Part shown: one piece after another, positions 15,001-18,000 of the stretch
How positions within the stretch are numbered: the first letter of the stretch is position 1
Layout: each line of letters opens with the position of its first letter
NCBI RefSeq assembly: GCF_013167455.1
Contig: NZ_CP038328.1
Strand: one strand, 5' to 3'
DNA: 64,000 nt
Source of the DNA: Escherichia coli O157:H7
GTDB lineage: Bacteria; Pseudomonadota; Gammaproteobacteria; Enterobacterales; Enterobacteriaceae
Program-made: the position numbers

Positions 15001-18000
15001 GGAGTGATTGAAACAGAAGCGCAAAGGCGCTCTATTGGCGATTTCTTCAGGATGTTAATCATGATTTAGCCCTTCTGATTGGTGTCACGTTGTAGTGTTC
15101 TCCGCGTTCCAGCGACACTAACAGAGTGGTCCACTTCGCCAGTGCGTCCCGTCGTTCATTGAAATACTGATAGCGGTTGTATATGCCTTCGACTCCCTTG
15201 ATGCGGTGATTGAGGCATCTTTCAGCGACTACCGGATCAACACCAAGCGCAGCTAGATGTGTGCGTGCTGTACGGCGGAAGTCGTGAATAGTGAAATTTG
15301 GAACTTCCGGCATCTCTGCGCGGACTTTTGCCAGCGCAACAGGTAGGGTGCTCTCCTGAATGTGGGGGATCATCCTGTGCTGCATTTTCCGCGCCGGAAG
15401 CACCCAGGCACTATTGCATGACAACACACGCAACTCTCGCAGCCATTCAATAACGGGATGGACGAGTGGAATATCGATGGGGTCGCCGTTTTTGCTGCGT
15501 TCCTCCGGCAGATGCCATACAGCGTTATCAAGGTCGAATTCTTCCCATCTGGCGGCGCACAACTCCATCTTCCTGACACAAAGCGCCAGCAATAGCTTAA
15601 ATGTGAGTTCATTCTCGCGGCTGAAACCCTTTGCGGTCCGCATAGCCTGAAAGAATCGGATTAGCTCTTCACGAGTCAGCCAACGGTCGCGGGAGGACTC
15701 CTTGCCACCAGCATCAGAGACTTCAAACGCAGAGCATGGGTTAATCTCCAGCACATGACGTTTTACCCCGTAGTCGAATATGCGGCGCGTCCAGCGTAGA
15801 ACGTCCGTTGCAATGGTTGGCGCTCCACGGTCAACAATTGCCTTTAGCATCTCGTCAATGTGTCGTGGTTTTACGTCCTCAGCCTTCATATGACCAATAC
15901 GCGGGTTTATGTCTTTGTCGATGCGACGGCGCAGGATGTCGGGATGTTTCCATCGTGGCAGTATCTGACGTTCGAAATATTCGGCAGCAAGCTCTGATAC
16001 GCGCACGGCCTTTTTTTCTGCCTCAATTTTTGCCAGGGCTTCGGCCTTACGCTCCTGTTTCTCTGCTGCTACGTCGTACCCAAGTGCGACGCGAGCGGAT
16101 AGTTCCTTTGCTGTTTCTCTGGCTTTTGATAGCGAGTAATCAGCATAGGAACCAATGACCATTGCCCGTGCTTTTCCTGCGAATTTGTAGCGGAATCGCC
16201 ATGTTGGTATCTGGTCTTCTTTCCGGTAACGAAGGTATAAGCCACCGCCATCTGACCGCCCTTCGAATCGTTCACCTGATTTTATCCATGCCCTGATCTG
16301 AATATCTGTGAGCTTTGGCATTAAGAACTCCTGAACATTGAATAGAGAGGTGTACCCAAACAGATGTTCCAAAATGCAATTGGGTACACCTTTGGGTACA
16401 CGCTAATCATGCGCTTTCTTGCGTCGTTATGATAGCCATTAATTACAAAAAAACCCGCATTATCGCGGGTTTGATTGAATTATTGCGCTTTATTGATTCC
16501 CTCTGATAGCTTACTCCACATTTTGAATCTGCTCGCGCATCTGCTCAATCAACACTTTCAGCTCAATCGCGGAGTTTGTCACTTCGGCATTGATAGACTT
16601 CGACGCAAGAGTGTTCGACTCGCGGTTGAATTCCTGCATCATAAAGTCCAGACGACGACCAACGGCTTCTTTTTTCTTCAGAATGTTGTAGGTCTCTTTG
16701 ACATGCGCTTCCAGGCGGTCCAGTTCTTCGGCAACGTCAATTCGTTGTGCCAGCAGAACCAGCTCCTGCTCCAGACGGTTGTTTTCCAACTGAACCTGAG
16801 CATCTTCCAGCTTCGCGACCAGACGCTCACGCTGCCATTGCAGGATTTCCGGCATATGGGCGCGGACTTTGACCACTTCGGCGGTGACGCCTTCCAGACG
16901 CTGCTCGATCAATGCTTTCAGTGCCTGACCTTCGGTTTCGCGCGCGACAATAAAGTCGTCCAGCGTACCATCCAGCGCCGCGAGAATTTCAGCGGCAATG
17001 GCGTCAAGATCCTGCTCCTGGGCTGCCATCACGCCCGGCCAGCGTAGAATATCAACCGGGTTGATTTCCCCTTCGTCACTCTGCATTTTTACCCAGTTCG
17101 CGGCAGTTACCAGCTGTTTAGCCAGTTTTTCGTTGAGGATCAGCTCACCTTGCGCGCTAACATCTGGCTCATAGCGCAGGGTACATTCCACTTTACCGCG
17201 CGTCAGGCGAGAACGAATACGCTCGCGAACGACAGGTTCAAGGCTACGGAACTGCTCCGGCAGACGAAAGTAAGTTTCCAGATAACGCTGGTTTACCGAG
17301 CGCATTTCCCAGGTTGCGCTCCCCCATTCACCCTTGATTTCACGCCGGGCGTAGGCGGTCATACTGCGGATCATAGACGTTCCTGTTTATAAAAGGAGAG
17401 GTGGAAGGATTATAGCCATCGATGCCTTGTCAGGATAGGAATAACCGCCGGAAGTCCGTATAATGCGCAGCCACATTTGTTTCAAGCCGGAGATTTCAAT
17501 ATGCGTCCAGCAGGCCGTAGCAATAATCAGGTGCGTCCCGTTACCCTGACTCGTAACTATACAAAACATGCAGAAGGCTCGGTGCTGGTCGAATTTGGCG
17601 ATACCAAAGTGTTGTGTACCGCCTCTATTGAAGAAGGCGTGCCGCGCTTCCTGAAAGGTCAGGGCCAGGGCTGGATCACCGCAGAGTACGGCATGCTGCC
17701 ACGTTCTACCCACACCCGTAACGCTCGTGAAGCGGCGAAAGGTAAGCAGGGTGGACGCACAATGGAAATCCAGCGTCTGATCGCCCGTGCTCTTCGCGCG
17801 GCAGTAGATTTGAAAGCGCTGGGTGAGTTCACCATTACGCTGGACTGCGACGTGCTTCAGGCTGATGGTGGCACGCGTACCGCGTCGATTACGGGTGCCT
17901 GCGTGGCGCTGGCAGATGCGCTACAGAAGCTGGTGGAAAACGGCAAGCTGAAAACCAACCCGATGAAAGGGATGGTAGCCGCAGTTTCTGTCGGAATTGT

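Follow-up and report, generated by a model that had tools for sequence, protein, structure and literature searches.

The DNA analysed here (the window) is a stretch of 64,000 nucleotides of the Escherichia coli O157:H7 genome (NCBI RefSeq assembly GCF_013167455.1, contig NZ_CP038328.1), numbered on one strand from its first letter. Short direct and inverted repeats, the subject of this analysis, lie between int, which encodes a tyrosine integrase (Int), and the 3' end of yicC; both genes are transcribed from the minus strand. The region is unannotated in RefSeq. The int gene belongs to a genomic island, which also encodes, according to the RefSeq annotation of the island of strain E2855 and to PHROG hits, a 216-aa protein, an AlpA-type helix-turn-helix (HTH) protein, Ant-like and Icd-like proteins, a primase, SSB, ProQ/FinO, PerC-family regulators and a Q-family protein. 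Coordinates are collected in Table 1, where P denotes the int-proximal arm of the attachment site; the arm at the opposite island end is called P'. Loci compared with the window are referred to by strain name or by number (L001 onwards).

A repeat search identified TTGGGTACAC as a 10-nt direct repeat with a 12-bp period (16380-16389 and 16392-16401), its reverse complement at 16350-16359, and perfect inverted repeats of 12 and 11 nt (16348-59/16350-60 versus 16380-91/16391-401) separated by a spacer of 20 nt. An earlier reading made from the sequence alone (the sequence-only reading) had placed GGTGTACCCA at 16349-16358, TGGGTACACC at 16381-16390 and TGGGTACACG at 16393-16402, and these positions are exact. 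The same reading set the repeats between int and the yicC terminator; the placement holds for the repeats, but the terminator (16451-16472) is borne by the island, and is not a native feature of yicC. The int gene starts at 16321, and the nearest repeat copy is found 38 nt upstream of the ATG. TGGGTACAC occurs three times in the window, always in the 16348-16403 cluster, against 0.28 copies expected by chance, and none of 100 shuffles reached three copies.

Table 1. Features of the int-yicC interval and of the flanking genes
Feature	Position	Strand	Remarks
AlpA-family HTH protein	13810..14025	-	PHROG hit "excisionase and transcriptional regulator"; located 2.3 kb downstream of int start
int, 420-aa tyrosine integrase	15059..16321	-	Pfam: Arm-DNA-bind_3 (residues 4-90, E = 1.7e-18), Phage_int_M, Phage_integrase
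GAACATTGAATA	16333..16344	+	inverted copy of native E. coli yicC last codons (attB side); 12/12 match to strain 0-4 attB
P-arm arm-type site 3 (predicted)	16348..16359	+	inverted copy; AGGTGTACCCAA on + strand; starts 38 nt upstream of int ATG
Spacer, 20 nt	16360..16379	.	degenerate GTACA-type copy here (GGAACATCTGT)
P-arm arm-type site 2 (predicted)	16380..16391	-	int-proximal half of doublet; AGGTGTACCCAA in int direction
P-arm arm-type site 1 (predicted)	16392..16403	-	int-distal half of tandem doublet; GCGTGTACCCAA in int direction
Phased 10-bp units TATCA / ACGCA / GCGCA	16404..16447	-	between terminator and arm site 1; GCGCATGAT contains -10-like hexamer
Intrinsic terminator, island-borne	16444..16472 (terminator 16451-16472)	-	absent from empty site
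Second phased block TATCA / AATCA / GCGCA	16473..16510	-	between yicC stop codon and terminator
Island-supplied replacement of yicC 3' end	16511..16523	-	…Q-N-V-E-stop for …Q-N-I-E-stop of empty site (L002)
yicC	16511-17374	-	stop at 16511-16513
attL/attR identity block TGAATCTGCTC	16524..16534	.	same 11 bp at E2855 dinD-side junction (L001 4380-4390) and in empty site

The far end of the island was read in strain E2855. Here TTGTGTACATCC TTGTGTACACGG are found about 70 bp inside the dinD-side junction (L001 4449-4470), spaced with the 12-bp period and oriented as the int-side doublet. In 40.5 kb of E2855 the consensus TTGKGTACAY is matched exactly five times, and all matches reside at the island ends (two in P', three near int). 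The sequence-only reading proposed to look for a matching repeat at the other island end, and to compare the locus with an island-free strain. The former was found as a doublet in a near-identical strain; in the island-free strain 0-4 the repeats are missing at the locus, and a search of the empty dinD-yicC spacer for the motif yielded no copy, an outcome that favours the sequence-only reading. Far ends could be recovered for only 8 of about 60 loci, as most islands exceed the 10-kb flank. In each of these eight the far end bears a co-oriented doublet in the motif variant proper to that element (GGGCACCAATAC GGGCACCAGA in Methylomonas). In the reconstructed attP sites, 210-213 bp separate the P and P' doublets in six of the eight; the distance is 204 bp in one of the remaining elements and 221 bp in the last.

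Relatives were collected in one scan of representative genomes, which returned 80 loci, about 65 of them with an integrase 58-87% identical to that of the window. They span Enterobacterales, Aeromonas, Tolumonas, Betaproteobacteria of Neisseriales and Rhodocyclales type, and Methylococcaceae. The order upstream of int is the same in nearly all: the yicC 3' end, 107-109 or 117-120 nt including a hairpin terminator, a doublet with 12-bp period, a spacer of about 20 nt, and, about 38 nt ahead of the ATG, an inverted copy. This layout, with site 1 at its place and the 12-bp period, is conserved in about 55 of 66 loci; most relatives have the inverted copy near -38, its sequence changing together with that of sites 1 and 2. 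The spacer hosts a fourth GTACA-type copy in S43, U12A, L010, L013 and others. Motifs vary between elements (GTGTACCCAA, GTGTACACCT, GTGTACATAA, GTGTACTTAA, GTGTACCACT, GGGTACACCT, GGGCACCAA, GTGTAACCA, GTGCACCCAA), and the copies change in concert: they agree at 9.14 of 10 positions within an element, at 7.55 of 10 between elements (0 of 2,000 permutations). P' sites agree with the P sites of the same element at 8.4 of 10 positions, and with those of other elements at 6.9 of 10 (exact permutation, 3 of 40,320).

Islands inserted at the same locus in E. coli carry three motif variants (CCAA, ACCT, ATAA), each consistent across its own copies, which argues against binding by a host factor. Chance may account for GTGTACAC, which is palindromic, as short palindromes recur by chance, but not readily for the excess of copies over expectation or for a layout conserved across orders. 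Binding by a host protein, or an origin as a functionless relic or chance repeat, is therefore most improbable.

Concerted changes may also denote compensatory pairing, the inverted repeat being a stem-loop in the 5' leader RNA of int that would control translation or stability. The minus-strand RNA 16310-16412, in which site 1 pairs with the inverted copy, has a predicted energy of -29.2 kcal/mol (z = -2.75; 1 of 200 shuffles as stable), and among the copies it is often site 1 and the inverted one that resemble each other most. Stem stability is automatic for any inverted repeat, however, and an RNA of this type presupposes a transcript starting upstream of site 1. A stem-loop does not account for the doublet being in tandem, for its co-oriented counterpart at the far end, for the arm distance of about 212 bp, or for the match to residues of the Int N-domain described below; this explanation is regarded as very unlikely.

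The position of the repeats relative to the island end was set by comparison with other E. coli. A 501-nt query across the region has matches in 5,424 of 5,426 complete E. coli genomes, its int side being covered in only 458; about 4,970 of the 5,424 match the window only from 16509-16527 onward. In strain 0-4 dinD and yicC are 220 bp apart, and the alignment to the window begins at 16521. Because similarity to island-free E. coli begins at about 16521-16524, within the last yicC codons, DNA from 16322 to about 16523, terminator included, belongs to the island. Comparison of the empty site TTATTCAATGTTCTGAATCTGCTC with the window TTACTCCACATTTTGAATCTGCTC indicates that the island is seated in the last codons of yicC, and supplies its own 3' end and terminator. 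Judging from these alignments, the crossover is in or beside the 16524-16534 identity block, inside yicC codons. The proposal of a non-tRNA attachment site at yicC was thus correct, but the repeats do not mark the island junction as suggested, since they are found about 125-135 bp from the identity block. As to their nature, put forward as core or arm-type, the second term stands; core-type integrase sites were rejected, since the repeats are away from the identity block and absent from attB. Reading the region as a LexA box was dropped as well, since in the empty site that box is part of dinD.

On integration the YicC C-terminus changes from …QNIE to …QNVE. The gene remains intact, ends in island-encoded codons and uses the island terminator. 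A hairpin followed by a T-run is present at the terminator position in all relatives; the island terminator would stop transcription of the reconstituted yicC and protect int from read-through. Next to dinD, the displaced yicC 3' remnant lacks 2 nt relative to the empty site in both E2855 (L001 4370-4390) and S43 (L003 6465-6480), and reads TTACTCAATAT-TGAATCTG versus TTATTCAATGTTCTGAATCTG in the empty site. This recalls the "damage" to displaced target fragments described at tRNA targets in the literature on phage-inducible chromosomal islands (PICIs).

The N-terminal region of Int is a predicted arm-binding domain. The AlphaFold2 (AF2) model of residues 1-100 has a mean confidence (pLDDT) of 91.8, with strands at residues 19-25, 28-32, 40-47 and 50-58. 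Its best structural matches are 3JTZ, 3RMP and 3JU0 (TM 0.77-0.89 normalised to the target; root mean square deviation 1.6-2.0 A), and direct sequence matches to these arm-binding structures have E values of 7e-6 to 6e-5 and 30-32% identity. Residues 101-208 (about 15698-16021, minus strand), the core-binding domain, match PDB 2KJ5 ("Phage integrase", 116 aa; E = 5.9e-43), which on this similarity is the structure of a domain very closely related to the Int middle domain.

Motif distance between elements correlates best with distance of the Int N-domain (Spearman 0.41). Partial correlations with the motif are 0.30 for the N-domain given AlpA, 0.07 for AlpA given the N-domain, and 0.06 for the catalytic domain. 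Arg51 is found in 6 of 6 elements with sites starting with GGG, and in none of 39 with sites starting with GTG. The GGG elements reside in Xenorhabdus and Methylomonas, two independent lineages with integrases only about 50-63% identical across domains. Elements of the CCAA, ACCT-type and ATAA/TTAA classes feature their own residues at Int positions 31, 33, 36 and 40. Two Rosenbergiella integrases (L009 and L010) are 100% identical over residues 63-205 and 99.5% over 206-420, only 66% over 25-62, and the motifs are CCAA and ATAA, respectively. Between the diverged patches, the 70 nt that comprise leader and first codons hardly differ, which argues against a single swapped block, without excluding one. 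The same pattern is seen in Xenorhabdus L011 and L014, where the differences are nearly confined to residues 25-62 and the motif. Mutual information averaged by Int domain did not separate the N-domain (means 0.25, 0.21, 0.24); what is informative is limited to the top individual columns and the natural swaps.

Repeats of this type could alternatively be operators of the AlpA-family protein, acting as recombination directionality factor (RDF) or master regulator, or of another DNA-binding protein of the island, and control int transcription or the direction of recombination. PICI excision is known to need AlpA, alpA is a conserved neighbour of int (43 related loci, about 2.3 kb downstream), and the binder of a similar doubled motif, found in helper-embedded PICIs, was left open by the authors between Int arm domains, AlpA and an unidentified protein (PMC10111431). 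AlpA and motif are nevertheless decoupled both ways. AlpA is 95% identical in L011 and L014, as in S43 and U12A, and the motifs differ; it is 32% identical between the window and L011, and the motif is the same. The residual correlation of AlpA with the motif, once the Int N-domain is accounted for, is the low value given above. RDF sites are typically one-arm arrays with a period of one helical turn, and the adjacent 10-bp-phased units fit an RDF better than the 12-bp repeats do. An array of RDF sites of Xis, AlpA or Cox type was rejected on the 12-bp period, the inverted copy, the presence on both arms and the uncoupling from AlpA. Among the island proteins the decoupling concerns AlpA; the 216-aa open reading frame (ORF) lies between int and alpA. 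Control by AlpA or another island protein is considered unlikely, and the data favour recognition of the motif by the integrase arm domain.

The three repeats are thus interpreted, with a probability of about 0.78, as the P-arm arm-type sites, proximal to int, of the attP of a PICI integrating at yicC, read by the N-domain of Int, with probable repression of int by its own product. An arm-binding domain is present in Int, the motif is distinct from the core and located on both arms, is absent from attB, and evolves together with the arm domain. The repeats are most likely docking sites used by an integrase to enter, and exit from, the end of yicC, and a feature of this kind is ordinary and well understood.

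In the excised circle, attP would read in order: the P' doublet (GTGTACACAAGG ATGTACACAA), about 70 bp, the core in the last yicC codons, about 110 bp including phased 10-bp units and terminator, the P doublet (GTGTACCCAAAG GTGTACCCAA), 20 bp, the inverted copy, 38 nt, and int. The beta-sheet of Arm-DNA-bind_3 (residues ~25-62) would read GTGTAC and the variable tetranucleotide, and the catalytic and core-binding domains would act at the yicC core. Bridging of arms and core would build the recombination complex, for integration or, with an RDF and host bending proteins, for excision. P and P' would jointly offer five sites, and the inverted copy may serve differently in the two reactions. Int is also expected to repress int when bound to the arm sites, because these fill much of the 125 nt from terminator to ATG, the sole place for an int promoter.

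Some points weigh against this interpretation. The window does not reach the P' arm, for which E2855, a strain 99.5-99.9% identical to the window, was used instead. Co-variation between arms is imperfect, as several Enterobacterales P' sites feature GTACACAAGG irrespective of the variant on the P arm. Arm sites and codons 25-62 are found within about 300 bp, and P' also comes close in the circle, so that co-variation may partly reflect linkage or hitch-hiking. A sigma-70 promoter scan of 16200-16600 detected none, which leaves autoregulation with no mapped promoter; inspection by hand revealed weak candidates only, such as CATGAT just upstream of site 1.

A further proposal is tentative. Residues ~25-62 of the Arm-DNA-bind_3 beta-sheet and the tetranucleotide following GTGTAC could form a swappable specificity cassette, Arg51 for example being associated with G at motif position 2. 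Satellites sharing the same yicC core could have diversified their arm "address" in this way, against cross-excision or scrambling by integrases of co-resident or tandem islands. If true, arm recognition would follow a readable protein-DNA code, and orthogonal integrases acting on a single attB could be built.

Phage lambda Int provides the paradigm of heterobivalent integrases, with arm-type sites P1, P2 and P'1-P'3. As in lambda, a repeated motif unrelated to the core is found on both arms, for a total of five sites; a separate N-terminal domain is the (here predicted) reader, and accessory-protein sites (candidates here) are interposed between arm sites and core. Differences from lambda reside in motif, spacing and integrase subfamily, marked here by a P4-like Arm-DNA-bind_3 domain; moreover, the direction of int transcription is away from att, the int leader contains the sites, and there is no xis-int operon.

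Similarity is closer to helper-embedded PICIs, the attP of which contains a doubled motif, tgTGTATTGCantgTGTATTGCa, 81 bp from the attP centre on one side and 132 bp on the other (PMC10111431; Williams lab, NAR Genom Bioinform 2023). Doublets have a 12-bp period in both systems, two are co-oriented, at a distance of 213 bp there versus 210-213 bp here, int and alpA are present, and the motif grammar is xx-TGTA-NNNN-xx. In contrast, the variable tetranucleotide is TTGC there and CCCA here, the target is a prophage late gene there and yicC here, and an extra, inverted third copy is found beside int here. The published core motif is TGTATTGC; the core here is TGTACCCA and variants, which have TGTA alone in common with it. 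On these comparisons the architecture is the same as that of helper-embedded PICI attP, the motif family different. The authors did not find their doubled motif in other PICIs (PMC10111431). A layout previously reported only for helper-embedded PICIs would extend, with the elements described here, to another integrase clade distributed over several orders of Proteobacteria, and the natural cassette swaps bear on the binder question left open in the literature, in favour of the integrase arm domain rather than AlpA.

In KplE1 (CPS-53) IntS, P4 Int and IntI of pathogenicity island PAI I-536, the int promoter overlaps attL, and int is negatively autoregulated (PMC2951348, PMC7286903). As in these elements, int is located beside the junction, and arm-type sites are interposed between att and the int start; the consequence predicted by analogy is that Int represses its own promoter, and an RDF governs excision. 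Unlike the present case, a prediction from sequence at yicC, those elements have mapped promoters, footprints and tRNA targets. The P4-like integrases of the high-pathogenicity island (HPI; 3JTZ / 3RMP) and of HAI7 (3JU0) share the arm-domain fold; the likeness concerns the fold and the sequence identity reported above. The yicC 3' end is used also by MGIVmi1 of Vibrio mimicus and by GISpuPO1-type islands of Shewanella. These are mobilisable islands of unrelated gene content, inserted in the same gene at the same end, and no Vibrio or Shewanella locus was found among the 80 Int relatives.

By gene content, the island is a yicC-integrating phage satellite of the PICI type, of about 16 kb. It features int, alpA and a primase/replication gene in one orientation, has a size in the ~8-16 kb range and lacks virion and lysis genes, as Gram-negative PICIs do; in E2855 it measures 15,945 bp, identity block to identity block. 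PICIs at yicC are already on record. Induced O157:H7 phage DNA has yielded a 15,957-bp element inserted at yicC, not equated with the present island. To obtain a real attP, the excised form of 15,957 bp was sought in a phage collection; no match was found at the DNA level, and proteins matched at 33% identity at best. The region exists in several sequence variants and is carried by 440 of 5,426 complete E. coli genomes (~8%), including O157 and O103 Shiga toxin-producing E. coli (STEC). For this satellite a full recombination site can now be proposed, and the island boundary is corrected, the junction being inside yicC and the terminator island-borne.

The window opens inside the island, and positions 1-790 are a copy of the insertion sequence (IS) IS2. 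The dinD-side end of the island, with the P' arm, is located about 1.8 kb beyond the window start. Relative to E2855, a 2.36-kb IS66-family element is inserted at 2893-5257, and encodes TnpA, TnpB and a transposase split into two ORFs.

Phased 10-bp units flank the terminator on both sides. The two blocks include a 27-nt direct repeat (D1, 16410-36 versus 16484-510, 78% identity). In other lineages, lineage-specific pentamers (TCTCA, ACTCC, TTCCA, TCCCA) are found in 3-5 copies each, and their spacing is exactly 10 nt in 33 of 70 intervals. Enrichment of exact pentamers is not significant in the window itself (p ~1), and is clear only in other lineages and in the spacing statistics. The units are a candidate array for a second protein, such as an RDF, or for DNA bending.

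GAACATTGAATA sits 3 nt from site 3, overlaps the int leader, and copies the native yicC end, not the replacement end of the island itself. Of 66 related loci, 14 have a copy of this type at -22 to -25, versus 1.2% of shuffles. attB itself features the dyad ATTCA-N6-TGAAT, and GAACATTGAATA may be a core-like integrase site or half-site.

Arm-motif classes could serve for typing yicC islands, and for predicting cross-action between integrases. A truncated second P arm of the same family follows directly the first island in L036 (20915-21257), L014 (20867-21257) and L023 (13630-13977), and denotes an array, tandem or remnant, at yicC. The remnant of L036 has an arm-motif class (GTGTACCAC / CCCA) different from that of the intact island (GGGTACACCT).

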